Assembly: GCA_964475855.1 (NCBI GenBank) | Contig: CAYZAV010000001.1 | Span: forward strand, 143,014-207,013 | Origin: an uncultured Candidatus Saccharibacteria bacterium | GTDB lineage: Bacteria > Patescibacteriota > Minisyncoccia > Minisyncoccales > Staskawiczbacteraceae | Direction of reading: 5' to 3' | Length of the DNA: 64,000 nucleotides | Shown here: positions 1 through 53,240 of the stretch, piece by piece | How positions within the stretch are numbered: the first letter of the stretch is position 1 | Layout of the letters: every line of letters starts with the position of its first letter | The notes under the pieces: model-generated | Databases searched by the model: none | Told to the model about the DNA's origin: nothing | What the model saw: only the letters and a program-made list of their open reading frames with translations | Translations under genes and position numbers: made by a program

Positions 1-3000
1 TTTCAGGCTCTTTTGCACTTCCCCCATCTTCGTCTTCAACCGCAGATCCAAGTTCATCGCCTTTTCCATCTACTAGCGCAACTTCTGGCTCTTCGGGCGA
101 ATTGTCAGTAGGAAGATTTTCATACTTTTGTTGGTTAACCAATAAACTTTCTATCTTATTAATCAGAACATCCTTTTTGAGAACATTATTAATGTCTTCA
201 AAATATTCTTCAACATCAGGTAATTCTCTACCTTTGGCCGTATCCCTAACAACCCCTCTCCAATATTCTATTTTCTTAACAATATTTTCTACCTTCAAAT
301 CGCCCCTCATCCCTTTTATAATCCTTGCCTTATCTTCATCTCTATTCCGCAAAATTTCGTAAAGTGCCGGAAAGCTACCTGCATTTCCAATGTCAGTTTC
401 CACCTCTGTGTTTAGTTTTTCCCATTTTCTTTGTTCTGCAGCTTCTTCCTGTTGTTGTTGTTCATACTTCTTAGTTCCTTCTGTTTTTCCAAGCAATGTC
501 CATCCTTCTGGGAAAGCCTCGTTCTTAAAATTTTCCCATACAAACCTCGACCAGCGCGCCACTTTTGATTTTAGCTCTTCGTCTTCTTGTTCATCATCTC
601 CCTCCTCTCCTTCGTTAGAATCATCACCATTTTTGCCAACATTTGCCGCGGCGGCCTTTTTGGCATCATTTGACGTTCGTTCAGACGCTAACGGCGATTT
701 TTCTAAAGCACCAGGCTTCGGCCTTCTCGCCTTTTGCCTATCGCTAGCCAACGCCCTCTCTTTTACTTCGTTTTTTAACGCATTCAACTCTTTAAATTCT
801 GCATTAATTTCATCCCACAATCTGCCTTCCACTAACTTATCTTTCTCTGCTTTAAATTGTGCAATTTTTCTTTCAATAGCACTATATTTCGTGCGCAGGT
901 CTGGCCACCCGAACATATCGGTAAACTTATTAATTTCAATCAACATTAACTCCAACTGATTATCAATATCATTTACTGCCTTCGCTTTCTTCTCTACATG
1001 TCGCTGATCTTCTCCGGCAAGATTTATTTTTGGGGAATCCGCACTAGATTCAGCGCTATCAAATGGTCCAGCTAAGTCAAAAGAGCCCGAAGTTAATTCG
1101 CTTGGTTTCGACCCACTCCCACTATCAGAATCAAGACTTAGGTCGAAGTAGCCAGATTCAACTGATGGGATAGGATTATTACTATCTAAACTTAATTCAG
1201 AAGATTGGTTCGGATTGTCTTGGTTTGCGCTAGGATTTTTATCTAAATCTTCTTGGACTGTAAATTCTTCTGGTGGCCCCGGCTCGAAAAACTTTATTAA
1301 CCTATTTAAATTACTATTAATATCCCTATAAATCCATTGATAGGTTGCTGTTTCTGTAAACCCCTCAATAAGCACTCCCTCCTCAAAATCATTAAGATTC
1401 TTAACAATCCCATCGTATATTGGGGTTAGGTATGTTTTATCTATTTCTATCGTATCGCCTTTTTTCTTTGGATTATGAATTCTTACACGTTTTTCCGCTG
1501 GAATGGCATCAATTCTACTATTCATAAGCAGAAGACTATCTCGCATAGCCTTAATAGCAGCTTCCCTTGTCTCCCCCTTTTTCTTAACCCCATCTTCTGT
1601 ATCCAACTCAACTTCACTACCATTTTTTGGATCTTTTGGCGCTATCGGTTTTGACCCATCAGGTTTTTGCAACTCTGGCCTAGGACCAGTACGTTTTGCG
1701 TAAGCGGTTTTACCATTTCCATCTACATATTTAACCACTTGACTATATGGTGCAATAATAGGCTTGACACCTTCTTTATTAAATTCAAGAGAAAGTTCGC
1801 CAGAAGTGCTCATTTGTTCTCTTGCTATTCTTTCATCAAAATTACCGACCTCATCTCTTACAATTACCGAGTCTGCGCTATCTTCAAATTTAGCACTGCC
1901 AACAGCAATCGTCGGAACGCTAATTTCATCTTCCGTTGGCTCGCCCTTTTTCCATTCCCTGAATTCTATTTTTCCAATTTTCTGCTTTATAATTTTTTGG
2001 TTGCCATCTTTATTAAGCACAGGATTTCCATCCATATCAAAAACCCCAAACTCTAGTTCCGTTTCATTCAGTTTGCTTGCTTTAATAGTAGAAGCAAAAT
2101 TTCTAAGTTGCACATATTGCTGTACCAGATTACCTTCGGCATCTTTAGAAAACCGGTACGTTCGCCTACCAGCTACTCTTTTTAATAGCTTATTGATCCT
2201 TGCCTCCCACTCTTCCTTATTTTCCTTTTTTTCTTTCTTTAGCACCTCTCCCAGATTCTTTTTTTCAGGGCCTAATTCTTCCGTTTCATCGCCCTCTTTT
2301 TTCTCCCCCTTTTCAGTAGTTTTTAGATCCCCTGCAATTGGCTTATCCATCTTAAAGGTATCTCCATTCTCACCGAAAACTGCAGGAACTTTCACTGTAG
2401 TTAAATCCTCGCCAGATTTAGGGATTTCAGGTTGTTCTAAATGTTGGTTATAAAAATCAAATTTTTTATCCCAATAGCTATATATTTTTTCCCAACGTTC
2501 TTCAAAATTTCCTATATCTCCAACTTCAAAGCCCGGATCAAAAGATTCCACATCGAAGGCCCGCAACACAGCAATATCATGGTTTAAACCTTCAACGTCT
2601 TGAGGTTTTAGATTTTTCTTTTCAACAAGCGCGGTACACAAAGCTTCTAATCTGATGACTGAAATTTCCACATAACGACGGAATCGTTCCAGCTCTTCCC
2701 TCTCCTTTTCTGCATTCACCTCTCGCGCCGCAGCAATTTCAGGTAACTTTTCCAGTTCTTCCTGTGTCCGCCTCAAAGCTGCTAATTCATTGTCAATATT
2801 TTCGTCGGTTGCTACTTGTTCACCACCTGCAGTAGCAATATTTGGCGCAACTTCAGAGCCCTTGACCACCCCTTCATCTGGAGGAATAATTTGGTCAAAC
2901 AATTTATCTACGAGCTCTTGCGTTTTTGGATCAACAATTTCCGCTTCATTTGTTTGATCAACTTCTACATATCCACCTTCCTCCGCGGAAATTTCCTTCA

Positions 3001-3658
3001 TTTTTTCTAGTTCAGATTCCTTTTTTTCACCAGATGAGTAATAATCCAGTGGCTTCGACGACTTGATTGACTCTTCAATTGAAGTCCTTTTTGCTGCTTT
3101 TCTACTCTCAATAATGGCATATAGCCTATCTTGAGCTTTTTGCAACCGGTCTACCTTTTCTTTAAAATGGGAATTATCTAAATTACCCTTTTTATACTGC
3201 CTTCTTAGTTCCGTAATCCTATCTCCATATGCATCTTTTACGATCTTCTTTTTTGCTATCTTGGCCGCTTCAGGTAAACCTAAAATACCCCTTGCCTCTT
3301 TTTCCGATATTAAAACATCTTCTACTGTTTCTTGCACCCCCTTTCCTGTTTCCGATTCAATATCTTCAGTCGCCGGTTTAGGATTTTTTTCTCGCGAAAG
3401 AGTATCGGGCGCCCCCATATTCTGAAGAGTATCCTTTAGTTCGGTAACAGTTCCGGCGTATATATTATCCGCCGGGAGTTCAGAATTTCCTTGTGGAACG
3501 GGCAGTGCCGACTCTAAAGGTGCAACCGTATCAGGTGCTATCATAGCCTTAATCGTATCCCCTAGCTCAGCAGCATTTTTTACAACCAAATTATCTGCTG
3601 GGACTAAAGAATCTTCAGGTTTTTCTGGAATGTTATTTTCTGCTCGTTTTTCAGCCAT
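1..3658 (-). CDS. Large acidic hypothetical protein, N-terminus complete, C-terminus cut by window edge (at least 1219 codons)
   Basis: ATG at 3658-3656. Hand translation of the minus strand reaches position 2 with no stop. It is absent from the ORF track because it has no stop in the window. The + strand ORFs listed at 102-3010 are S/F/L-rich shadows of it. The product is E/K/D-rich with no TM segment or signal peptide seen, and no family was recognised. Confidence 0.8.
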   Translation of the reverse strand, partial: MAEKRAENNIPEKPEDSLVPADNLVVKNAAELGDTIKAMIAPDTVAPLESALPVPQGNSELPADNIYAGTVTELKDTLQNMGAPDTLSREKNPKPATEDIESETGKGVQETVEDVLISEKEARGILGLPEAAKIAKKKIVKDAYGDRITELRRQYKKGNLDNSHFKEKVDRLQKAQDRLYAIIESRKAAKRTSIEESIKSSKPLDYYSSGEKKESELEKMKEISAEEGGYVEVDQTNEAEIVDPKTQELVDKLFDQIIPPDEGVVKGSEVAPNIATAGGEQVATDENIDNELAALRRTQEELEKLPEIAAAREVNAEKEREELERFRRYVEISVIRLEALCTALVEKKNLKPQDVEGLNHDIAVLRAFDVESFDPGFEVGDIGNFEERWEKIYSYWDKKFDFYNQHLEQPEIPKSGEDLTTVKVPAVFGENGDTFKMDKPIAGDLKTTEKGEKKEGDETEELGPEKKNLGEVLKKEKKENKEEWEARINKLLKRVAGRRTYRFSKDAEGNLVQQYVQLRNFASTIKASKLNETELEFGVFDMDGNPVLNKDGNQKIIKQKIGKIEFREWKKGEPTEDEISVPTIAVGSAKFEDSADSVIVRDEVGNFDERIAREQMSTSGELSLEFNKEGVKPIIAPYSQVVKYVDGNGKTAYAKRTGPRPELQKPDGSKPIAPKDPKNGSEVELDTEDGVKKKGETREAAIKAMRDSLLLMNSRIDAIPAEKRVRIHNPKKKGDTIEIDKTYLTPIYDGIVKNLNDFEEGVLIEGFTETATYQWIYRDINSNLNRLIKFFEPGPPEEFTVQEDLDKNPSANQDNPNQSSELSLDSNNPIPSVESGYFDLSLDSDSGSGSKPSELTSGSFDLAGPFDSAESSADSPKINLAGEDQRHVEKKAKAVNDIDNQLELMLIEINKFTDMFGWPDLRTKYSAIERKIAQFKAEKDKLVEGRLWDEINAEFKELNALKNEVKERALASDRQKARRPKPGALEKSPLASERTSNDAKKAAAANVGKNGDDSNEGEEGDDEQEDEELKSKVARWSRFVWENFKNEAFPEGWTLLGKTEGTKKYEQQQQEEAAEQRKWEKLNTEVETDIGNAGSFPALYEILRNRDEDKARIIKGMRGDLKVENIVKKIEYWRGVVRDTAKGRELPDVEEYFEDINNVLKKDVLINKIESLLVNQQKYENLPTDNSPEEPEVALVDGKGDELGSAVEDEDGGSAKEPE

Positions 3659-3737
3659 GCAATAAATACCTTTAAATTAAATAATTTTACCACGTATATA
3701 AAAACAATACCAAGTACCGTGCCAAACAAACTAACTA

Positions 3738-3766
3738 TTGACAATGCTATATATAAATGATATATA
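3738..3766 (+). promoter_or_regulatory. Sigma70-type promoter, TTGACA-17-TATATA
   Basis: TTGACA at 3738-3743, 17-nt spacer, TATATA at 3761-3766. It lies about 40 nt upstream of the GTG at 3808. Confidence 0.6.
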
Positions 3767-4420: not shown

Positions 4421-4681
4421 ATGGCAATCACCAAATCAGCGAAAAAAGCTATCCGCCAGAACAAGAGGCGCAGGGCCCACAATGTGGTTTATTTGAATGG
4501 AATAAAAAAGCTTCTCAAACAAGCTAAGGATTTTGTGGTGCAAAAGAAAAATAAAGAGGCAAAAGAACTGTTGCCAAAAGTGTACCAGATTTTAGACAAA
4601 GCAGCTAAAGTGGGAATTATCAAAAAAAATACCGCATCACGTAGGAAATCCAGATTAACCAAGTTAATAGAGCGATCCTAA
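4421..4681 (+). CDS. rpsT: 30S ribosomal protein S20
   Basis: MAITKSAKKAIRQNKRRRAHN... is the typical S20 N-terminus. The track start at 4382 (TTG) overlaps the promoter, so the ATG at 4421 is preferred. Confidence 0.9.
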   Translation: MAITKSAKKAIRQNKRRRAHNVVYLNGIKKLLKQAKDFVVQKKNKEAKELLPKVYQILDKAAKVGIIKKNTASRRKSRLTKLIERS

Positions 4682-4710
4682 TCTACGAATTACATCCGAA
4701 TGATCCGAAT

Positions 4711-4736
4711 AAAAAACCGCCTTCTGGCGGTTTTTT
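4711..4736. terminator. Bidirectional rho-independent terminator
   Basis: AAAAAACCGCC-TTCT-GGCGGTTTTTT, lying inside cassette A. Confidence 0.8.
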
Positions 4737-4744
4737 GATTATCC

Positions 4745-5122
4745 TTAATATGACTGCAGGGCGGGATTTAGCACTCTTTTCGGTTTTAAATACGTGCTCC
4801 TAAAATTGACTATTAATCCTAATTCTAAATTACTTCCCGAAAGATACCTTTGCATTTGGAAATAATCTTCTTTAGTAATAAATTTTTTTGCCTTCACATC
4901 AATGATAATCTTGTCATCAATAAGAAAATCAAACCTATTTCCCTTCACTGGTGCATCTGGAATTTCAAACTCTCTTTTATAGGTAATTTGTTTTTCTTTG
5001 AGCACCAATTCCAAAGCATCCGCATATTGCTTTTCACGCAAAAACCGGCCGTGCTTATTTTGGATATCGAAACAAATCCCTGTTAATTCATATGATAATT
5101 GTGCGTGCAATATTCGGGTCAT
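4745..5122 (-). CDS. GxxExxY-family protein (PD-(D/E)XK nuclease fold)
   Basis: 125 aa. GRFLREKQY, DFLIDD...IDVK and LGLIVNF match the family pattern as I recall it (TIGR04256-like). Confidence 0.7.
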   Translation of the reverse strand: MTRILHAQLSYELTGICFDIQNKHGRFLREKQYADALELVLKEKQITYKREFEIPDAPVKGNRFDFLIDDKIIIDVKAKKFITKEDYFQMQRYLSGSNLELGLIVNFRSTYLKPKRVLNPALQSY

Positions 5123-5149
5123 TCGGATGTAATTCGTAAATTAGGATCG

Positions 5150-6085
5150 CTAGATTTGCGACACCAGCAAATCTAAAGCTGTTTCTAATTCTATTTTGCC
5201 GGTTTTAATATCTGAATCAGTTTGGAATATTTTATGATATATTTTTTTTAATTCCTCAAAGCTGAACTGGTGGCACTGCTCATACGTTTTTTTGACCACA
5301 AACGGGTGTAGCCCGCTTTTTTTGACAATAGAGTCATACATCATCCGTTTCTCAGCCAGCTCTTTAACAATTAATAAATTTTTAAACTGGAAGGCAATCA
5401 TACTTAATAGGTACAACACGTTATCACCTTCGTCCAAATGTTTGCGCAGCAGCACCAGCGCCTGCTTTTTATTTTTGTGCGCCAGGGCGTCAATAGTTTT
5501 AAAAATGTCCAGCGCAATACTTGGCCGTACCATTAATTCCACATCTTCTTTTTTAATGGTTACGCCCTTTTTATAATCCGCCAGTTTTTTGATTTCCTGG
5601 TGCAAGCGCCAGCAATCTGGGCCAGTATAGGCCGTCAGCAAATCCAGTGCATCCAAGTTTATTTTTGCGTTCAAAACCTGCAATTCGCTCTGCGCCCAAA
5701 GTTTCAAGTTTTTAGGATCCAGAGACTTGAATTCCTGGCATTTGGCCATTTTAACAAGCTGTTTGAAAATTTTTAACCGCTGGTCAGGTTCTTCATCTTC
5801 ATAGACAACAGTAATATCTTGTAACTCCTGCAGTGTTTTCACCTCTTCTAAAAAATCTTCCTGGAACTGTTTATTGGCAAATAAATTTTTCAGCACCACC
5901 AGCTTTTTTTCAGCAAACATGCCCACCGCCCGGAAGTGTCCGAAAAACTCCGCAAAGTCCGCCTCAATCGCATCCACCCGCATCAAATTCAGCCCGCTTT
6001 TACGAACATTTTTATACTGCCCCACAATCTCATCCAGTTTTTGCTTCGATCTATAACTATCTTGTCCGAATAAAAAAATTATCAT
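5150..6085 (-). CDS. holA: DNA polymerase III delta subunit
   Basis: 311 aa. The MIIFLFGQDSYRSKQKLDEI... N-terminus and overall length are typical of HolA. Confidence 0.8.
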   Translation of the reverse strand: MIIFLFGQDSYRSKQKLDEIVGQYKNVRKSGLNLMRVDAIEADFAEFFGHFRAVGMFAEKKLVVLKNLFANKQFQEDFLEEVKTLQELQDITVVYEDEEPDQRLKIFKQLVKMAKCQEFKSLDPKNLKLWAQSELQVLNAKINLDALDLLTAYTGPDCWRLHQEIKKLADYKKGVTIKKEDVELMVRPSIALDIFKTIDALAHKNKKQALVLLRKHLDEGDNVLYLLSMIAFQFKNLLIVKELAEKRMMYDSIVKKSGLHPFVVKKTYEQCHQFSFEELKKIYHKIFQTDSDIKTGKIELETALDLLVSQI

Positions 6086-6093
6086 GGGTCGCA

Positions 6094-6530
6094 GTTATAA
6101 AGTTTGTAAAGTTATAAAGTTCATAAAGTCCTGTGCCATAATCTTATAAAGTTTTTATTAAGCCTGAAATCATCCGAGATATTTCCTTAGACAAAGAATT
6201 TATTTTTTCAAATTCTTCTCTTGAAACATAATTTAAGTCTACTGCAGTATATGACATTGATCTTACCTCTGAACAAGAACCTTTGGCAATATACAAAAAT
6301 CTAATAAACTCTTTATTTCCCATTCTTTCGAATCCTTCTGCGATATTATTACCAACACTAACTGTTGCCCTTTTGATTTGGTCACAAAAACTAAAATCTC
6401 TGTTATTTTTAAATAACGCATATATTAGTACTGCCAATTGCCTGCTTTTTTGCCAAGCAACAATATCTTCAAATTTTTCGAATTTCATTTTAGAACTTTA
6501 TAACTTTACAAACTTTATGAACTTTATAAC
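6094..6530. mobile_element. IR-bounded cassette B carrying a four-helix-bundle gene
   Basis: Flanks 6094-6130 and 6493-6530 are built from the same 8-11-nt units (GTTATAAAGTT, TGTAAAGTT, ATAAAGTT, CATAAAGT) in inverted orientation with permuted order. The cassette occupies the whole mutM-holA spacer. Confidence 0.6.
6144..6488 (-). CDS. Four-helix-bundle protein (23S rRNA intervening-sequence protein family)
   Basis: FEDIVAWQKS...NNIAEGFER...KGSCSEV matches the family pattern. Confidence 0.85.
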   Translation of the reverse strand: MKFEKFEDIVAWQKSRQLAVLIYALFKNNRDFSFCDQIKRATVSVGNNIAEGFERMGNKEFIRFLYIAKGSCSEVRSMSYTAVDLNYVSREEFEKINSLSKEISRMISGLIKTL

Positions 6531-7405
6531 TATAGCACCTGACATTTCGGGCAATAGAATGCGCTTCGGGCGGCGATTACTTTGCGCACAATAATCGCTT
6601 TACACCGGGAACAATTCTTGCCTTCCATTTGATATGCTTTTTTATGACCTTCGAAATTGCCCTTATTACCATCAACATCACGGTAATCAGAAAAGCTGTC
6701 TCCACCAAAATCTATGCCAGCGTTGAGTACTTTTTTAATATATTTATAGAGCAACTGTAATTCTTGCCTACTTAAATTTTCTGCCCGCTTTTCAGGGTGG
6801 AGACGCGCCCACCATAGCGCCTCGCTGGCATAAATATTACCAATGCCGGCAATCACAAATGGATCCATTATGACTTGCTTTATCTTTCCGCGTTTTTTGG
6901 AAACAATAGCCGCAAACTTTTCAAACGTGAAATTATTTTCCAGCGGTTCAGGCCCTATTTTCTTAAATTCCGGCGACACCAACAGTTCGTCCGTTTTCCA
7001 TAATTCAACCTTGGCAAATTTGCGCATATCAGAAAGCGCAATCATGTCGCCATTATCCAAAAAGAATATTATGTGCAAAAATCCATTTATCCGTTCGCGC
7101 AACGGGCCTTCGTCAGCCGACACCCATGTTCCATGCTTCATGTTCCATGTTCCATGAAGAAAGTGTCCCGTCATTTTCATATGCACTAACAAAGAATATC
7201 CGTCTGACAATTCAAATATGACATTTTTCGCCCGACGCCAAACGCGGATAATTTTCTTGCCCTTCAATTCTTTTTTAAACTGCGTAAACGGCCGCGGCCG
7301 TTTCACCATCTTTTCCCAATCGCACCACACATCAACAAAGGCCCGGTTAAGGACCTTTGCTTGTAACCCATTGACGGTGGTTTGTACTTCAGGTAGTTCC
7401 GGCAT
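6530..7405 (-). CDS. mutM: Formamidopyrimidine-DNA glycosylase
   Basis: MPELPEV N-terminus (catalytic Pro2) and a C-terminal zinc finger CSRC...CPKC. The track start at 7513 adds 36 spurious residues. Confidence 0.9.
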   Translation of the reverse strand: MPELPEVQTTVNGLQAKVLNRAFVDVWCDWEKMVKRPRPFTQFKKELKGKKIIRVWRRAKNVIFELSDGYSLLVHMKMTGHFLHGTWNMKHGTWVSADEGPLRERINGFLHIIFFLDNGDMIALSDMRKFAKVELWKTDELLVSPEFKKIGPEPLENNFTFEKFAAIVSKKRGKIKQVIMDPFVIAGIGNIYASEALWWARLHPEKRAENLSRQELQLLYKYIKKVLNAGIDFGGDSFSDYRDVDGNKGNFEGHKKAYQMEGKNCSRCKAIIVRKVIAARSAFYCPKCQVL

Positions 7406-17483: not shown

Positions 17484-17505
17484 AGGGAAATATATAAACT
17501 TTAAC

Positions 17506-17569
17506 AGCGTCTAGCGGATAGCGTCTAGGGTCTAGTAAAAACTAAACCCTAAACCCTGAACGCTAAACC
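17506..17569 (+). repeat. Oligo-repeat hairpin (GCGTCTAG / CTAAACC units)
   Basis: 17521-17535 pairs with the 17548-17569 region at about 12/15 positions. Confidence 0.45.
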
Positions 17570-17578
17570 TTAACTATA

Positions 17579-26396: not shown

Positions 26397-26561
26397 ATAT
26401 TTATTACTTTGAAGTTTGGAGCTGGAAGTTAGGAGCTAGAATAGAATTTGGAATATTGAATTTAGGGTTCGTATTTTCTTTTTCCTGTGCTCCACATCAG
26501 CTTATCAGGGTTAATCTGGAAACTGGTGCGGCGTTGCGGATGAAGTACTTCCCTAGTTGAC

Positions 26562-26705
26562 TCAAGGAAGTATTCGCAATACATAATCCTCCGTTAACTC
26601 CCCTGGGAGGATTATGTATTGCGAATACTTCCGACCTATCTTATGCCGTTCTTGCCAAACATGAAGATCAGTAAATTTTGTAATTTTTCCAGTTGCAATA
26701 TTCAT
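26562..26705 (-). pseudogene. Four-helix-bundle protein remnant (47 codons)
   Basis: MNIATGKITKFTDLHVWQERHK... matches the family N-terminus (compare FEDIVAWQKS at 6144..6488), then loses similarity and stops. Confidence 0.5.
26566..26632. repeat. Perfect 27-bp inverted repeat with a 13-nt loop
   Basis: GGAAGTATTCGCAATACATAATCCTCC at 26566-26592 is the reverse complement of 26606-26632. Confidence 0.85.
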
Positions 26706-26735
26706 AATTCTATATTCTATTCCAGCTCCCAACTC

Positions 26736-28550
26736 CTAACTTCCATCTTCCGTAGCATTGCTTTGTTTTAACTTTTTCCGAGCTTCGCGGATTTTTTCCA
26801 CTTCGCCGGGGGCGGTGGTGATGATCTGGTCTTCTGTGTAACTGGCTTTAACACTCATAAATACATGTTTTTTACCGGCGAAAAATAACCCTTCGCCTAC
26901 CGAAGCTTCCAGGAGTAAATTCTTTTCTTGTTCAGTCAGATTAAACGTTTTTTCTAGGATTTCTACGGCCGCCGGTGATTGTTTAAGTAATAACTGCAGC
27001 GAAGAGTTGGTAATAATAGCCTTGCCATAGGAAGACTTCATAAAATCTTCAATGTCTTGGGTGATAGTGGTAACTCCCAACCAATACTTGCGTCCGCGTT
27101 TTACTAGGCCGAATAGGAATGAGGCGCCGTCTTCGGTTTGCATCAGCCACCAGGCTTCGTCCACTACTAGAATACGTTTTTTGGCCTTACTACGTACAAT
27201 ATTCCAAATATATCGCATAACAATAAAGAGGGCAATCGGTTTTAGTGTCTCTTCCATATCGCGGATGCCAAACACAATAAGCTGTTTATCAATGACGATG
27301 TTAGACTTTTGGTTGAAAAATCCGGAAAAACTGCCTTCGGTGAATTTTTTCAAGCGGCGGGCCAAGGATTCGGCTCCGGTCATATTTTCCAACACCTGTC
27401 CGAAATCAGCCATAATAGGCACGTTTTCCTGCCAGGTAGCCGGGTCGGATGTCGGGGTGATGTCGCGGATGGCATACGTTTCACTGATGGCTTGGTCTAA
27501 AATACTATCTTCTTCCGCTGTCAGTCCGCCCATCATAATGCGTAGCAATCCAACTAGGTTGATAACGTTGGAACGTAACACGTCTTCGGGATTATCATCG
27601 GGTCCGGGCACCGGCAAATCAAACGGGTTGACGTGGTGCTCGGATGTCAAAGAAATTTTAAAGAAATTACCCCCTACCCCATCAGCCAAAAATTCATATT
27701 CATTTTCCGGGTCAATAATAATGACATCAATGCCCCACATCAGGTAACGCAGGATTTCAAGCTTGATGGCGTAGGATTTCCCGGAGCCGGACTTTGCAAA
27801 CACTACCATGTTGGCGTTTTCCAAAGTAAAGCGGTCAAAGAGCACTAGGGAATTATTGTGGCCGTTAACGCCGTATAAAATGCCTTCGTTACTGCTTAAA
27901 TCAAAAGAAATAAAAGGAAAGGTGGTGCTTAATGGTTCGGTATTCATGGGCACATGAATATCCACCAAGTCCATGCCATAGGGGTTTGAAGAAATAAACC
28001 CTTCACGCTGTTTAAAGAGCGCCGGTTTTATGTAAATCAAGCGGGATTCAAAAATAGACCGCAGCGAACTTTCCACTTCCCGCATTTTTTCGGCGTTATT
28101 TTCATAAATGGTGATATATAACCCGAACCGGAACATTTTTTCCTGTGCCGTCACAATTTTGTCGCGCAGCGTTTCAATATCCTGGTAACCCGTTTCCAGG
28201 GCCGGGTCACGGATTAAGCCTTTTTCTTGGCGTTCCAATAATTCCGAAGCCACCTGCGTCACTTTGGACCGCAGTTTTTTCAAAATGACTTCATTGTTGA
28301 CCGGGTGGATGAAAAAACAGATATCCATGGGGACATTCAAATTAATGGCAGGGGAAAGCCAGCCGGTATTTAAATAGCGCGGATAAGAAAAAATAAAAAA
28401 TGATTTGACGAATTTTTCGCCAAGGTTAATGTGGTCCTGGGCAATGCCAATATATGGCGGCGCAATAATATCCTTAATATCAAGCGCTTCGCTGCCATGT
28501 TCGGTCAAATTATCCAAGTCTTCTTTTTTCTTAAAAAAAGGAATTTTCAT
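26736..28550 (-). CDS. virB4: VirB4/TrbE-family type IV secretion ATPase
   Basis: Walker A AKSGSGKS, Walker B ILVVDEAW, and overall Gram-positive-type VirB4 layout. Confidence 0.8.
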   Translation of the reverse strand: MKIPFFKKKEDLDNLTEHGSEALDIKDIIAPPYIGIAQDHINLGEKFVKSFFIFSYPRYLNTGWLSPAINLNVPMDICFFIHPVNNEVILKKLRSKVTQVASELLERQEKGLIRDPALETGYQDIETLRDKIVTAQEKMFRFGLYITIYENNAEKMREVESSLRSIFESRLIYIKPALFKQREGFISSNPYGMDLVDIHVPMNTEPLSTTFPFISFDLSSNEGILYGVNGHNNSLVLFDRFTLENANMVVFAKSGSGKSYAIKLEILRYLMWGIDVIIIDPENEYEFLADGVGGNFFKISLTSEHHVNPFDLPVPGPDDNPEDVLRSNVINLVGLLRIMMGGLTAEEDSILDQAISETYAIRDITPTSDPATWQENVPIMADFGQVLENMTGAESLARRLKKFTEGSFSGFFNQKSNIVIDKQLIVFGIRDMEETLKPIALFIVMRYIWNIVRSKAKKRILVVDEAWWLMQTEDGASFLFGLVKRGRKYWLGVTTITQDIEDFMKSSYGKAIITNSSLQLLLKQSPAAVEILEKTFNLTEQEKNLLLEASVGEGLFFAGKKHVFMSVKASYTEDQIITTAPGEVEKIREARKKLKQSNATEDGS

Positions 28551-28559
28551 GAGTAAAAT

Positions 28560-29231
28560 TTATTTAAGCAGTTCCGGCAATATTTCCGGATAGTATCCCA
28601 CTTCGGCTTCATCGGGATGGTGGATGGCCCAGTATAATTCTATCAGTTCCGGGGTAGTGAGCGGTATGACTTCCAACCCGCAGCGTTTTAAACCCATGGC
28701 TACGAATTCCATTCGCTGCCAGAGCTGGTTTTTCACTTTTTCAAAATTAGCATCAGAAAGGTTGTTGTCTTTGTCATTCGGGTCTTTTTTCTTAAATAGC
28801 CTTCCCAAACCCTTGCTTTTCAATCCCGCGCCCACCCCTAATATTTGGGAGATGGTATAAGGGATGACCACATAAAAACTTTTGGTCATAATGGAATTTC
28901 CCTTGACCAGTTCCCGGATAAACTGCTGATAAGAAGATGTTTGGGTTTTAAGTAGTTCGTTTTCCTGTTGTTCTTCCAAGGCTTTAATATTATCTAAATA
29001 TGGAGTGATATTGATTTTGCGTGACTGGATGACAATCTGGCAGGTAAAATCCAGGGAATTCAAAAAACTCTGGAAGGCGAAAATAATGGCATTTTGTTCT
29101 TCGGAAGATTTAAGGGCAAAATTCATAGAAGAAACCATCAAAATTCCCCGGATCCCATCGTTCTTCAAAACCACCACGCCTTCGCGTATTTCTTTTATCT
29201 CCAAAAATTCTTGTGTAGCAGGTTCTGGCAT
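28560..29231 (-). CDS. VirB4 N-terminal-domain-like protein (no ATPase domain)
   Basis: The FLEIKEIREGVVVLKNDGIRGILMVSSMNFALKSSEEQ pattern resembles the N-domain of conjugative VirB4 ATPases. It ends 9 nt before virB4. Confidence 0.45.
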   Translation of the reverse strand: MPEPATQEFLEIKEIREGVVVLKNDGIRGILMVSSMNFALKSSEEQNAIIFAFQSFLNSLDFTCQIVIQSRKINITPYLDNIKALEEQQENELLKTQTSSYQQFIRELVKGNSIMTKSFYVVIPYTISQILGVGAGLKSKGLGRLFKKKDPNDKDNNLSDANFEKVKNQLWQRMEFVAMGLKRCGLEVIPLTTPELIELYWAIHHPDEAEVGYYPEILPELLK

Positions 29232-29236
29232 ATGTT

Positions 29237-29714
29237 AATTTGAAATTTACAATTTGAAATTTGAATTCAATTTGAAATGGTTAAATATTAAATTTAAAAA
29301 TTAGTTTTTTGTTGAGTAAGCAATTTTACCGAATATTAGTATGAATTCTTTTGACTCTTGCCAGAGATTTCTGCAGTCTTCCTTTATTTTACCATTATCT
29401 ATAGATTCTCCTAGTAACTCCAACCAATACAGAGTTTCCTTGGATTCTTTCTTGCAGATAAATATTTTATTCTGAAAGTCTTTTCTGCTTGATGCGCCAT
29501 TTGCTTCCCGGTAATTCGCCCCGATACTGGTGCCTGAACGTATTAACTGATTGATTAAAGGTATGGTAGTGATGCTTTTTGGACATAGGTTGCAAAAAGT
29601 AATTAACTTGCGGGAAAAATCCAAGGTTCTTTTTTCTAAGTCGTAAGCTTTTTCAAATTCAGCCATTTGCTTTTTTCAAATTGAATTCAAATTTCAAATT
29701 GTAAATTTCAAATT
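29237..29714. mobile_element. IR-bounded cassette C: perfect 41-bp arms around a four-helix-bundle gene
   Basis: 29237-29277 is the exact reverse complement of 29674-29714. It sits between the start of 28560..29231 and the stop of 29714..30121. Confidence 0.85.
29301..29666 (-). CDS. Four-helix-bundle protein (23S rRNA intervening-sequence protein family)
   Basis: LIRSGTSIGANYREA...KESKETLYWLELL. Confidence 0.8.
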   Translation of the reverse strand: MAEFEKAYDLEKRTLDFSRKLITFCNLCPKSITTIPLINQLIRSGTSIGANYREANGASSRKDFQNKIFICKKESKETLYWLELLGESIDNGKIKEDCRNLWQESKEFILIFGKIAYSTKN

Positions 29715-30121
29715 TACTTGCGTGTCTCTACCTTAGTTTTAACATCTTTTAGCGCACTGTGCTGCATTTTCATGGACGTTTTGGCTGTTTCTAGTACGGC
29801 AATCGGTTCGGGTTTTTTATGGACTTTAAACGGATAGGGCACTTCTTTCTTTTTCCAGGTATAGGTTTTTGACTTGGTGGCAAACCCGATAAAATTCATC
29901 AAGACGGTAGTAACCGACATGTTGTTGAGTTTTATAAACGCCACTACAAACGTTATTAGCGCGGTAAACCCGGCAAGGACAATGGCAAACAGCAGGCGCA
30001 GGAGCAGGAAATATCCAAGGCACAAAAATCCGCCAATAACCACCATCCAAAATTGCTTGAATGTCAAAAAAGCAATAATTTTCCCCTCTTCTTCTATAAA
30101 TTGTGGTGTTGGATACTGCAT
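29714..30121 (-). CDS. PrgI-family (VirB3-like) membrane protein
   Basis: MQYPTPQFIEEEGKIIAFLTFKQF followed by two TM helices, the typical PrgI layout. Confidence 0.6.
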   Translation of the reverse strand: MQYPTPQFIEEEGKIIAFLTFKQFWMVVIGGFLCLGYFLLLRLLFAIVLAGFTALITFVVAFIKLNNMSVTTVLMNFIGFATKSKTYTWKKKEVPYPFKVHKKPEPIAVLETAKTSMKMQHSALKDVKTKVETRK

Positions 30122-30142
30122 AAAATTTATTCAATAAATTTT

Positions 30143-30224
30143 CGCGGAATAATGCGGAATTTTACGCGGAACTAAGCGGAATTTTTCGTTTTATTCCGTG
30201 TGAATTTCCGTGTCATTCTGCGCG
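30143..30224. repeat. Cargo-less oligo-repeat hairpin (GCGGAAT units)
   Basis: Four direct GCGGAA(T/C) units followed by the inverted units ATTCCGTG, TTTCCGTG and ATTCTGCGCG. Confidence 0.55.
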
Positions 30225-30233
30225 ATGATAATG

Positions 30234-33416: not shown

Positions 33417-33542
33417 TTAGTATTCTAATGCTTTAAGTAGCTCATTAAAATCAGCTTTAGTAGCTTTGGTGTCTAATTTTCCTTCTATATTACGGAATTT
33501 CTCATCCAAATATTGGATAAGCTCAGAAAAATCTTCTTTCAT
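33417..33542 (-). CDS. 41-aa ORF translationally coupled to rsmA
   Basis: ATGA overlap with the rsmA TGA stop. Product MKEDFSELIQYLDEKFRNIEGKLDTKATKADFNELLKALEY, with a terminator directly downstream. Too short for the ORF track. Confidence 0.45.
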   Translation of the reverse strand: MKEDFSELIQYLDEKFRNIEGKLDTKATKADFNELLKALEY

Positions 33543-34378
33543 AGATTTACTATAATCTCGCCGTAACTGCTTGTCAAATTTTTCCAATCCTGCAGGCTAA
33601 GCGTTTCTGCACGGCGTTTGGCATCAATATTATTTTTCAAAAGCCAAGCACTAATAGCTTCTTTATCTTTTTTAAGGGCTTTAGAGAGGTTTCCTGCTAA
33701 TTGCTTGCGCGGTGCTGAAAAACCGGCTTTAACTAGAGTGAAGAATATTTCAGGGTCAATTGTCGATTTTTCCTTGTGCGGGGTGATGGAAATAATAGCC
33801 GAGTCCACGTTGGGTGCCGGCCAGAAGCAATTTTTGGAAACGTAGGAAATAACTTTGGGAGTGGCGTAAAACTGTACCGAAAGGGCCAGAATACTCATGT
33901 CTGGCGGCTTGGCGCAAATACGCTTTGCCACTTCTTTTTGAACCATCAACACCATAATAGTTGGTTGGTGTTTTTCCTCCAGAAATTTTCTGATGATGGG
34001 CGAGGTGATATAGTACGGGATGTTGGCGACTAACTTATAATTTGAAATTTGAAATTTGAAATTTGAAATTTCGAGCGCGTTGCCCTGGACGACTTCTACA
34101 TTGTTAAAGCCTGCTAGTGTTTCTTGTAAAATTTCTACCATGGCGCGGTCTTTTTCTATGGCAATGACATTGCCCGCCTTTTCTGCCAATGCCCTGGTAA
34201 GAGTGCCAATGCCCGGACCAATTTCTAAAACTGTATCCTGGCTGGAAAGCTCTGCCGCCGCAATAATTTTTTCTAAAATCCGTCCGTCAATCAAAAAATT
34301 CTGGCCAAGCCGTTTGGATGGCGCGGCAGCATGTTTTGCTAATAATTCCTTGATTACCGAGGGGGAGATAATGTCCAT
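33539..34378 (-). CDS. rsmA: 16S rRNA (adenine1518/1519-N6)-dimethyltransferase
   Basis: LGQNFLID, EIGPGIGTLT, ANIPYYITSPI. Confidence 0.9.
   Translation of the reverse strand: MDIISPSVIKELLAKHAAAPSKRLGQNFLIDGRILEKIIAAAELSSQDTVLEIGPGIGTLTRALAEKAGNVIAIEKDRAMVEILQETLAGFNNVEVVQGNALEISNFKFQISNYKLVANIPYYITSPIIRKFLEEKHQPTIMVLMVQKEVAKRICAKPPDMSILALSVQFYATPKVISYVSKNCFWPAPNVDSAIISITPHKEKSTIDPEIFFTLVKAGFSAPRKQLAGNLSKALKKDKEAISAWLLKNNIDAKRRAETLSLQDWKNLTSSYGEIIVNL
34039..34074. repeat. Tandem AATTTGAA octamers (4.5 units) inside the rsmA coding sequence
   Basis: Encodes the in-frame NFKFQISN of ...EISNFKFQISNYKLVANIPY. It uses the same 12-mer AATTTGAAATTT that occurs twice in the cassette C arm. Confidence 0.8.
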
Positions 34379-40712: not shown

Positions 40713-40722
40713 TATTTTTTGC

Positions 40723-40822
40723 AGCGATCCGAATAACCCGAATCTTCATCCGAATAACCCGAATAATCCTGCCGCCCAGCGGATTCGGAACATTCGGATG
40801 CTATCCGTAAATTAGGATCGCT
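40723..40822. repeat. Cargo-less hairpin with the same termini as cassette A
   Basis: Starts AGCGATCC and ends GGATCGCT. The reverse complement of the right arm is AGCGATCCTAATTTACGgatagCATCCGAATG, against cassette A AGCGATCCTAATTTACGaattaCATCCGAATG. Confidence 0.7.
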
Positions 40823-40827
40823 ATTAA

Positions 40828-41328: not shown

Positions 41329-41331
41329 ACA

Positions 41332-41429
41332 ATAGTTTTTAGTTGATAGTTATTAGTTTTGGTTTTGCAGTTTCTAGTTTTAACTGTTAACAAAGTAACT
41401 AAAACTAATTACCAATAACTATTAACTAT
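41332..41429. repeat. Oligo-repeat hairpin, TAGTT family
   Basis: The left half TAGTTTTTAGTTGATAGTTATTAGTTTTGGTTTTG is inverted in the right half. The same sequence family occurs at 53139-53240. Confidence 0.55.
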
Positions 41430-42387: not shown

Positions 42388-42391
42388 AAAA

Positions 42392-42470
42392 GTTTACCCT
42401 GAGCGAAGTCGAAGAGTTTACACTGAGCGAGCGTAGCGAAGTCGAAGCGTTTACACTGAGCCTGTCGAAG
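42392..42470. repeat. Three tandem units GTTTAC(A/C)CTGAGC...GTCGAAG
   Basis: Units at 42392-42414, 42416-42446 (with an 8-nt internal duplication) and 42448-42470. The array abuts the tRNA-Arg 3' end. Confidence 0.8.
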
Positions 42471-53138: not shown

Positions 53139-53240
53139 ATAGTTTATAGTTATTAGTTCATAGTTTTAGTTAACTAGTTACTAGTTAGCAAAACTAATGA
53201 CTAAAAAACCAAAACTAATAACTAAAAACTAAAGACTAAT
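53139..53240. repeat. Oligo-repeat hairpin, TAGTT family, abutting the nusA ATG
   Basis: The reverse complement of the right half contains TAGTTTTTAGTTATTAGTTTTGGTTTT, near-identical to 41335-41367. Confidence 0.55.

Follow-up and report, generated by a model that had tools for sequence, protein, structure and literature searches.

A putative family of palindrome-bounded gene cassettes, resembling rRNA intervening sequences, at operon junctions of Candidatus Staskawiczbacteria

Introduction

Intervening sequences (IVS) of bacterial rRNA genes that contain an open reading frame (ORF) are elements of ~430 nt that are bounded by a terminal stem of 28 bp, carry an S23p ORF, are excised by RNase III and are distributed sporadically; their function and origin are unknown (PMC4990558). 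The origin and mobility of IVS and the function of the conserved S23p/four-helix-bundle (4HB) ORF have been open questions since the first descriptions around 1990, and according to an old proposal the ORF serves mobility (PMC4990558). ORFs annotated as 23S_rRNA_IVP have been reported in rRNA insertions of the candidate phyla radiation (CPR; bioRxiv 10.1101/2024.02.27.582315), and S23p as well as Avd are pentameric barrels (PMC4990558; bioRxiv 10.1101/2023.10.23.563531). Here, we describe cassette C, an element of 478 nt with a 4HB gene between two protein-coding genes of an operon resembling those of type IV secretion systems (T4SS). It is located at positions 29237-29714 of a 64-kb stretch of a Candidatus Staskawiczbacteria (Parcubacteria/CPR) genome (contig CAYZAV010000001.1, positions 143,014 to 207,013), which is the whole stretch that was analysed and is referred to as “the window”.

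Cassette C and the ORF-containing 23S/16S rRNA IVS of Leptospira, Coxiella, Brucella, Xanthomonas and CPR have the same cargo family (PF05635 / S23p), a similar size (478 nt compared with 428-444 nt in Coxiella) and long complementary termini (41 bp compared with 28 bp in Coxiella). In the literature searched, no description of IVS-like cassettes outside rRNA was found, including GxxExxY, PF05635 and PF13366 in such a context. That the 4HB family has many non-rRNA members is already implicit in database annotation. The architecture of the cassettes, their habitat at stop/start junctions, their turnover rate, the ORF-less derivatives and the heptad arms appear to be new. We consider it moderately probable that cassette C belongs to a family of selfish cassettes of the IVS type that are small (~0.45 kb), lack a promoter, are bounded by palindromes and, in Staskawiczbacteria and related Parcubacteria, colonise protein-coding operons at their stop/start junctions.

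Results

Architecture of cassette C

Cassette C is bounded by a perfect inverted repeat of 41 nt, i.e. positions 29674-29714 are the exact reverse complement of 29237-29277, as had been recognised in a first-pass annotation that was made from the letters of the window alone. No perfect inverted repeat of the window is longer (span ≤700 nt). The longest perfect repeats in dinucleotide shuffles were ≤16 nt for the whole window (n=30) and ≤14 nt for the AT-rich segment 29232-29713 (n=500). The first-pass annotation had stated that the repeat cannot be extended by a single base. The perfect match indeed ends at 41 nt, but beyond one mismatch three further pairs follow, resulting in 44 nt at 98% identity (29234-29277 / 29674-29717). 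The 41-mer is single-copy in the window.

The cassette is co-oriented with both of its neighbours, the upstream PrgI-like T4SS gene (29714-30121, minus strand; PF12666, 2.5e-7) and a downstream gene for a VirB4 N-terminal / TrsD-like / TraC-like protein (VirB4N; 28560-29231, minus strand; NCBIfam matches, PF26593 in homologues), which is followed by the gene for a VirB4/TraG P-loop ATPase. In the direction of the operon, the 5′ arm (29674-29714, minus strand) is composed of five AATTTGA/AATTTAC heptads with a period of 7 nt, the fifth of which is separated by a 4-nt interruption, ATTC. The previously noted overlap of one base with the TAA stop codon of the PrgI-like gene exists, but the shared base, 29714, is the last and not the first base of the codon in reading direction. 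The 3′ arm (29237-29277, minus strand; AATTTGAAATTTACAATTTGAAATTTGAATTCAATTTGAAA) ends 5 nt before the ATG of the VirB4N gene, the five intervening bases being AACAT on the gene strand; the first-pass annotation had given a distance of 6 nt to the start codon.

The inter-arm segment of 396 nt contains a single ORF of 121 aa (29301-29666, minus strand), which encodes a 4HB or “23S rRNA intervening-sequence protein”. Full-length profile matches above the curated cut-offs place it in PF05635 (E=3e-14, 53.5 bits vs. a cut-off of 33.8) and in TIGR02436 (E=9e-20, 70.9 bits vs. a cut-off of 24). The earlier description as a discrete 4HB gene cassette within a T4SS-like operon is borne out. The family profile also matches PDB 2RLD, an uncharacterised Bacteroides protein that was deposited with five chains. 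PADLOC yielded no defence-system match, and no relative of the 4HB protein was found in viral contigs.

No promoter-like site is present on the gene (minus) strand within cassette C. A near-consensus sigma-70-like promoter, TTGACA-17-TATAGT (11/12), is found on the minus strand at 33577-33549 upstream of the operon. This site lies in the 3′ end of a ksgA-like gene, ahead of the first gene of the T4SS-like operon, which encodes 821 aa.

The gene-strand RNA of cassette C has a predicted folding energy of −115 kcal/mol (z=−5.6). Independent assemblies of sister samples carry the identical cassette C sequence, which shows that it is not an assembly artefact. Some short-read contigs break off within the arm, because the arm exceeds the k-mer of the assembler (Logan).

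Occupancy and turnover of the junction among relatives

A scan with the VirB4N protein retrieved the same operon from 80 species-level genomes, and the PrgI/VirB4N junction was classified in the 77 genomes in which both genes could be placed (L plus a number denotes a related locus or contig). The junction is empty in 42 genomes, in many cases as TAAATG, TAA-N-ATG or TAAaacATG, contains an ORF-less hairpin of 56-157 nt with the same kinds of units in 13, and is filled with a cassette of 430-580 nt in 22. The first-pass annotation had argued that the same gene with diverged, non-complementary flanks in all relatives would speak against mobility, and this was not what was found. The cassettes at this junction belong to at least eight arm/cargo lineages, comprising several 4HB clades as well as GxxExxY. 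Some of the empty junctions are footprint-like, e.g. in L054 (TAAtaaatttcaaatttcaaattaacacATG).

Among the 80 genomes, the closest homologues of the 4HB protein of the window, with 76-77% identity and homologous arms, are those of L015, L047 and L008. The cassettes of L015 and L047 occupy the same junction as cassette C, and that of L008 occupies the next junction, an arrangement that is repeated in the metagenome locus L087. The patchy occupancy and the presence of the same lineage with its arms at another junction in L008 and L087 uphold the earlier suspicion that cassette C belongs to something mobile. In the relatives, cassettes are also located upstream of PrgI and on either side of the ATPase gene, i.e. 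between it and VirB4N or after it.

In the closest relative, L166 (VirB4N 90% identical), 4HB cassettes are present at the three other junctions and an ORF-less hairpin is present at the PrgI/VirB4N junction, while the operon of L167 (VirB4N 79%) is clean, i.e. it has no cassettes and spacers of 3-13 nt. The ORF-less hairpin of L166 (3891-4000) and the neighbouring cassette (4670-5116) have a common unit family, AAAATGGAAAATGA, and together they look like a pair of an autonomous and a non-autonomous element in one operon. L052 carries two 100% identical 4HB cassettes of 488 nt at two junctions that are 3 kb apart (3021-3494 and 6097-6570). The identical block begins at the stop codon (TGA) of the upstream gene and reaches the ATG of the downstream one, without a target duplication. 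These two copies are the clearest sign of recent intragenomic copying. The comparison of the relatives shows that the gain and loss of cassettes, their duplication within a genome and their decay to ORF-less hairpins proceed much faster than the divergence of the host genes.

The VirB4N gene of the window is itself adjoined in the same frame by the ATPase ORF, from which it is split by one TAA and two codons (28550-28562). In all homologues listed, the N-terminal part of VirB4 is a separate protein of ~220 aa with its own Pfam family, PF26593, and in several relatives a cassette is placed between this part and the ATPase part.

Orientation and insertion sites

All cassette ORFs are co-oriented with the host operon (53 of 53 in 80 loci and three of three in the window, i.e. 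cassettes A, B and C; p=1.4e-17). A search with the 4HB profile yielded 80 metagenome loci of very diverse context, in which 65 of 72 upstream neighbours and 63 of 75 downstream neighbours share the orientation of the cassette. The window contains no rRNA gene, and an Rfam search of 20 metagenome loci with related cassettes revealed tRNAs only and no rRNA context.

The arms start 0-10 nt past the upstream stop codon and finish 0-8 nt ahead of the downstream ATG. Filled and empty relatives alike have an intact PrgI C-terminus, L[KR]TK. The stop codon is TAA at 14 of 23 filled sites compared with 37 of 42 empty sites (p=0.024), TGA or TAG being more common at filled sites, and a TAA or TAG is often left directly upstream of the downstream ATG. 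The stop codon usage and the leftover codons suggest that insertion takes place at or just before the native stop codon and that the cassette brings a new stop codon with it.

Heptad arms and their conservation

The best period was 7 nt in 75 of 96 arms of 4HB cassettes, compared with 4 of 66 shuffled arms. The median arm length of 4HB cassettes is 41.5 nt (interquartile range 34-48), corresponding to four to six heptads per arm. The arms of GxxExxY cassettes have variable periods. The earlier remark that cassettes A and C have arms of equal length is only loosely correct, because the arms of cassette A are 46 nt long and match at 91%, but ~41 nt is typical of the family. The units differ between the cargo clades (AATTTGA, AATTTCT, CTAATTA, TAGGGTC, GAATCTT, AAATCCA and others), and a unit sequence stays with its cargo at different junctions and in different hosts. 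The arms of cassettes A and C are indeed unrelated in sequence, as had been stated, but arm type tracks cargo type.

A generic measure of arm identity was dropped, because its values for shuffled arms are 0.73-0.77 owing to low complexity, and a region-wise alignment of four related cassettes was used instead. The pairwise identities of the two arms are 0.93 and 0.88, which is about the level of second codon positions and far higher than that of third positions (0.51); the short inner spacer has a value of 0.55. The identities at codon positions 1, 2 and 3 of the ORFs are 0.83, 0.91 and 0.51, respectively, and the 4HB ORF is, judged by its codons, under purifying selection. The 5′ arm of cassette C has a mean pairwise identity of 92.7% with the arms of L015, L047 and L008; it does not differ from the arm of L015 within the aligned part and hardly differs from that of L008. 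A recent insertion, which had been put forward as one explanation of the perfect arms, is thus not required, since cassettes with ORFs of only 76-77% identity have 5′ arms that are almost the same. In the 3′ arm of cassette C, the order of two heptads differs from that in the three relatives and exactly mirrors its own 5′ arm, which points to arm-to-arm homogenisation.

The other explanation that had been proposed for the perfect arms was selection on the stem. If base pairing in RNA were selected for, G:U-type mismatches should exceed A:C-type mismatches on the sense strand. In ~100 cassettes, 105 mismatches were of the G:U type, 108 of the A:C type and 381 of other types (p=0.89), so that there is no excess of G:U over A:C and the values match the random expectation. 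Slightly better arm duplex energies were obtained for the antisense strand (28 vs. 15). The conservation of the arms at the sequence level, together with the lack of a wobble signature, suggests that they act as DNA-level terminal repeats and not as RNA stems that are selected for pairing. In addition, cassette A has a terminator-like hairpin (4710-4737) inside its arms, between its ORF and the distal arm, so that its stem would form only upon read-through; this also speaks against a pairing-selected RNA stem.

These results bear on a first alternative, in which cassette C would be a host-beneficial RNA element: the 41-bp stem would be a device for RNase III processing or translational coupling that sets the stoichiometry of PrgI, 4HB and VirB4, and selection on the RNA stem would keep the arms perfect. 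It would be in line with the co-orientation with the operon, with arms that abut a stop codon and a start codon, with the very stable fold, and with the precedent of the rRNA IVS that are excised by RNase III (PMC4990558). However, the junction is empty in 42 of the 77 relatives and the operon of L167 is clean, showing that the host has no need of the element. In addition, G:U mismatches are not in excess (105 vs. 108), the arms are conserved in sequence rather than covarying, the hairpin of cassette A precedes the distal arm so that a stem would be formed only upon read-through, and ORF-less and decayed copies persist. We therefore regard an RNA element in the service of the host as unlikely.

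A weak asymmetry was seen in base composition, i.e. on the sense strand of the 5′ arm C exceeds G in 49 of 72 cassettes with non-zero GC skew (L006-L165); the AT skew of the arms is not significant. The GC skew may reflect a weak strand asymmetry or phylogenetic non-independence.

Further cassettes and ORF-less hairpins in the window

The window contains two further cassettes, both of which are co-oriented with the host genes and extend from the upstream stop codon toward the next gene. Cassette A (4666-5156, minus strand) contains a GxxExxY / PDDEXK_3 ORF (4745-5122), lies behind holA and overlaps with rpsT at the 3′ end of that gene. Its arms cover the final 16 nt of rpsT, which is encoded on the other strand (4666-4681), and run over the stop codon of holA (5150-5156). 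By extending into the neighbour, the cassette provides C-terminal codons and the stop codon of a neighbouring gene. Cassette B (6093-6531, minus strand) lies between fpg and holA, contains a 4HB (PF05635) ORF (6144-6488) and has arms of ATAAAGTT units.

Many intergenic spacers of the window contain ORF-less hairpins with arms of tandem short units, and a hidden Markov model search of these hairpins revealed no ORF remnants. One with GCGGAAT units (30137-30230) lies between a gene for 194 aa and the PrgI-like gene, at a junction that carries ORF-containing cassettes in relatives. Another (17500-17575) has TAGCGTC/TAGGGTC units, and the same units bound 4HB cassettes in L007, L009, L016 and L052. 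A third has TAGTTAT units (53140-53231), and the same unit family is found once more at 41329-41425. An ORF-less hairpin at 40713-40827 (minus strand), which resembles a transposable element of the miniature inverted-repeat type (MITE), fills an entire stop-to-start spacer and has the termini AGCGATCC...GGATCGCT and ~45 nt in common with the arms of cassette A. By its sequence, it stands to cassette A as a MITE to its parent.

A decayed sister cassette is located after the VirB4 ATPase gene, in a spacer of 339 nt (26397-26735, minus strand). Its nature emerged only when its DNA was aligned with the L166 counterpart, which is intact (6975-7358): the arms are kept, the first ~60 nt of the 4HB ORF are kept without the ATG, and the middle has been replaced. 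Its folding energy is −117.6 kcal/mol. Nested within it is a perfect stem of 27 bp with a loop of 13 nt (GGAAGTATTCGCAATACATAATCCTCC...; 26566-26632), which looks like a second, unrelated small palindromic insertion.

The ORF-less copies are the starting point of a second alternative, i.e. that the cassettes are non-autonomous MITE-like transposons moved in trans by an unlinked transposase of the host or of an insertion sequence (IS), or by a structure-specific recombinase. The 4HB and GxxExxY proteins would then be passive, and the heptads would result from slippage. The terminal inverted repeats, ORF-less copies with common termini, identical intragenomic copies and a cargo without a catalytic domain all fit this explanation. 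On the other hand, the many arm families track the cargo lineages, the heptad period is specific to the 4HB cassettes, the cargo is under purifying selection and throughout in sense orientation (56 of 56), no consistent target-site duplication was found, and only two cargo families occur, both of which are known from rRNA IVS contexts by family name. Mobilisation of a passive cargo in trans thus seems improbable, to about the same degree as an RNA element.

Outside the cassettes, the heptad AATTTGA recurs as a perfect array of 4.7 units at 34039-34071. This array sits inside a ksgA/rsmA-like ORF (33539-34378, minus strand) and encodes the variable linker GNALE-ISNFKFQISNYK-LVANIPYY of the KsgA-like protein. 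Compared with solved KsgA structures, no length insertion was seen. Since 7 is not divisible by 3, a gain or loss of units would cause a frameshift in this gene. Tandem units of ~30 nt (GAGCGAAGTCGAAGAGTTTACACT), which are not of the heptad type, adjoin a tRNA-Arg gene (42388-42470). A long minus-strand ORF extending beyond the edge of the window accounts for the ORF-free stretches at 960-3756, which are its antisense.

Discussion

Cassette C as a probable member of a family of selfish cassettes

If cassette C is a copy of a selfish, IVS-type cassette, its arms would be terminal recognition arrays at the DNA level, most plausibly for the encoded 4HB protein, which is putatively pentameric. Template switching within the palindrome, or gene conversion there, would have homogenised the arms of cassette C and thereby made their match perfect. 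Expression would rely on read-through transcription from the promoter of the operon. In the transcript, the arms would have to pair as a duplex of 41 bp, looping out the cargo and bringing the stop codon of PrgI and the start codon of VirB4N together. By analogy with the rRNA IVS, this duplex is a likely substrate of RNase III, and the combination of arm pairing, looping-out and probable cleavage would render the insertion tolerable.

Several observations weigh against this interpretation. Cassette C contains no transposase, integrase or recombinase; the 121-aa 4HB ORF is its only ORF and has no match to a transposase family. PF05635 is not known to have a nuclease motif. The arm families differ, and no single trans-acting, sequence-specific enzyme can serve all of them. 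The GxxExxY cassettes have the same architecture without a heptad period, so that a link between pentamers and heptads cannot be general. Tandem units may stay uniform via slippage, i.e. by concerted evolution without selection, and the argument from conservation therefore leans mainly on one alignment of four sequences. The comparison of hairpins and cassettes at the same locus is confounded by the cassettes' own arms and is unusable as evidence. Lastly, a consistent target-site duplication is absent across the cassettes, and none is present in L052, L018 and L047. In agreement with the first-pass annotation, cassette C also lacks an unambiguous duplication; a TAA flanks it on both sides, as is the case in L015, which is compatible with a duplication of 3 bp in cassette C, but the pattern is not general.

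A third alternative, an invertible DNA switch in which recombination between the 41-bp arms flips the segment of 396 bp, might be indicated by the perfect inverted repeats around a short segment and by the short-read contigs that break within an arm. It was excluded and is highly improbable, because all 56 cassettes are in sense, the contigs of the sister samples all have one orientation, the breaks follow from an arm that exceeds the k-mer of the assembler (Logan), and no invertase gene is adjacent. A chance similarity of low-complexity sequences or an assembly artefact, for which only the AT-rich and repetitive nature of the arms could be cited, was likewise excluded, its probability being negligible in view of shuffled repeats of ≤16 nt, the identical sequence in independent assemblies and homologous arms in other species.

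A more specific proposal can be derived from the heptads, which we put forward only tentatively and consider rather doubtful. The 4HB “IVS proteins” might be sequence-specific binders of heptad arrays and serve as a maintenance or mobility factor of palindromic mobile cassettes that lack a transposase. A single homopentameric ring would recognise some five units of 7 nt, the strand being wrapped as by TRAP, and the cassettes would insert at operon stop/start junctions and at rRNA hairpin loops. If true, this would explain the nature, the source and the ORF conservation of bacterial rRNA intervening sequences, and the connection of heptads and pentamers would provide a function for a very large family of uncharacterised proteins.

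IVS-type elements are numerous outside rRNA, where empty sites, ORF-less forms, decayed copies and identical duplicates are found side by side. This allows direct tests of the rules of insertion, of the rates of turnover and of how arm sequence is linked to protein lineage. The cassettes also matter for the annotation and assembly of CPR genomes, as they break contigs, lengthen intercistronic spacers by ~0.5 kb and can provide the stop codons of neighbouring genes.

Comparison with known systems

Integron cassettes are promoterless small ORFs that need an upstream promoter, and their recombination sites are set more by palindromic structure than by sequence. The cassettes described here are likewise co-oriented, small and promoterless. 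In contrast, they are single and scattered between housekeeping or T4SS genes, without an attI/intI array or an adjacent integrase, and their arms flank the ORF and complement each other.

In the REP/RAYT (REPIN) system, in which RAYT is a Y1 transposase of the IS200/IS605 type, a single gene within inverted palindromic repeats and dispersed ORF-less palindromic derivatives occur in the same genome, as is the case here. However, the cassette cargo is a 4HB or a GxxExxY PD-(D/E)XK-like protein and not a Y1 transposase, and many families co-exist per genome.

The Correia/NEMIS elements of Neisseria are MITEs in operons that are cut by RNase III; they have a length of 100-155 bp, no ORF, a duplicated TA target and one sequence of the terminal inverted repeat. 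Terminal inverted repeats, an intergenic location, many copies, co-transcription (probable for the cassettes) and a stem serving as substrate for RNase III (predicted for the cassettes) are common to both. The cassettes differ by a conserved ORF, many unrelated arm families, heptads and the lack of a clear duplication.

At the protein level, the closest parallel is Avd, the accessory protein of diversity-generating retroelements, a pentameric, positively charged 4HB barrel with an S23p/IVS-like structure that works when bound to structured nucleic acid (bioRxiv 10.1101/2023.10.23.563531). The context is different, as no reverse transcriptase, template repeat or variable repeat adjoins cassette C.

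Beyond cargo, size and termini, the comparison with the rRNA IVS reveals differences as well as further similarities. Cassette C lies between protein-coding genes at a stop/start junction and not in an rRNA helix, its arms are heptad arrays, and excision by RNase III is known for the IVS, whereas cassette C is only a candidate. Both types of element have a suspected but unproven mobility, are sporadically present, have ORF-less versions and are situated within a host transcript, which for cassette C is probable.

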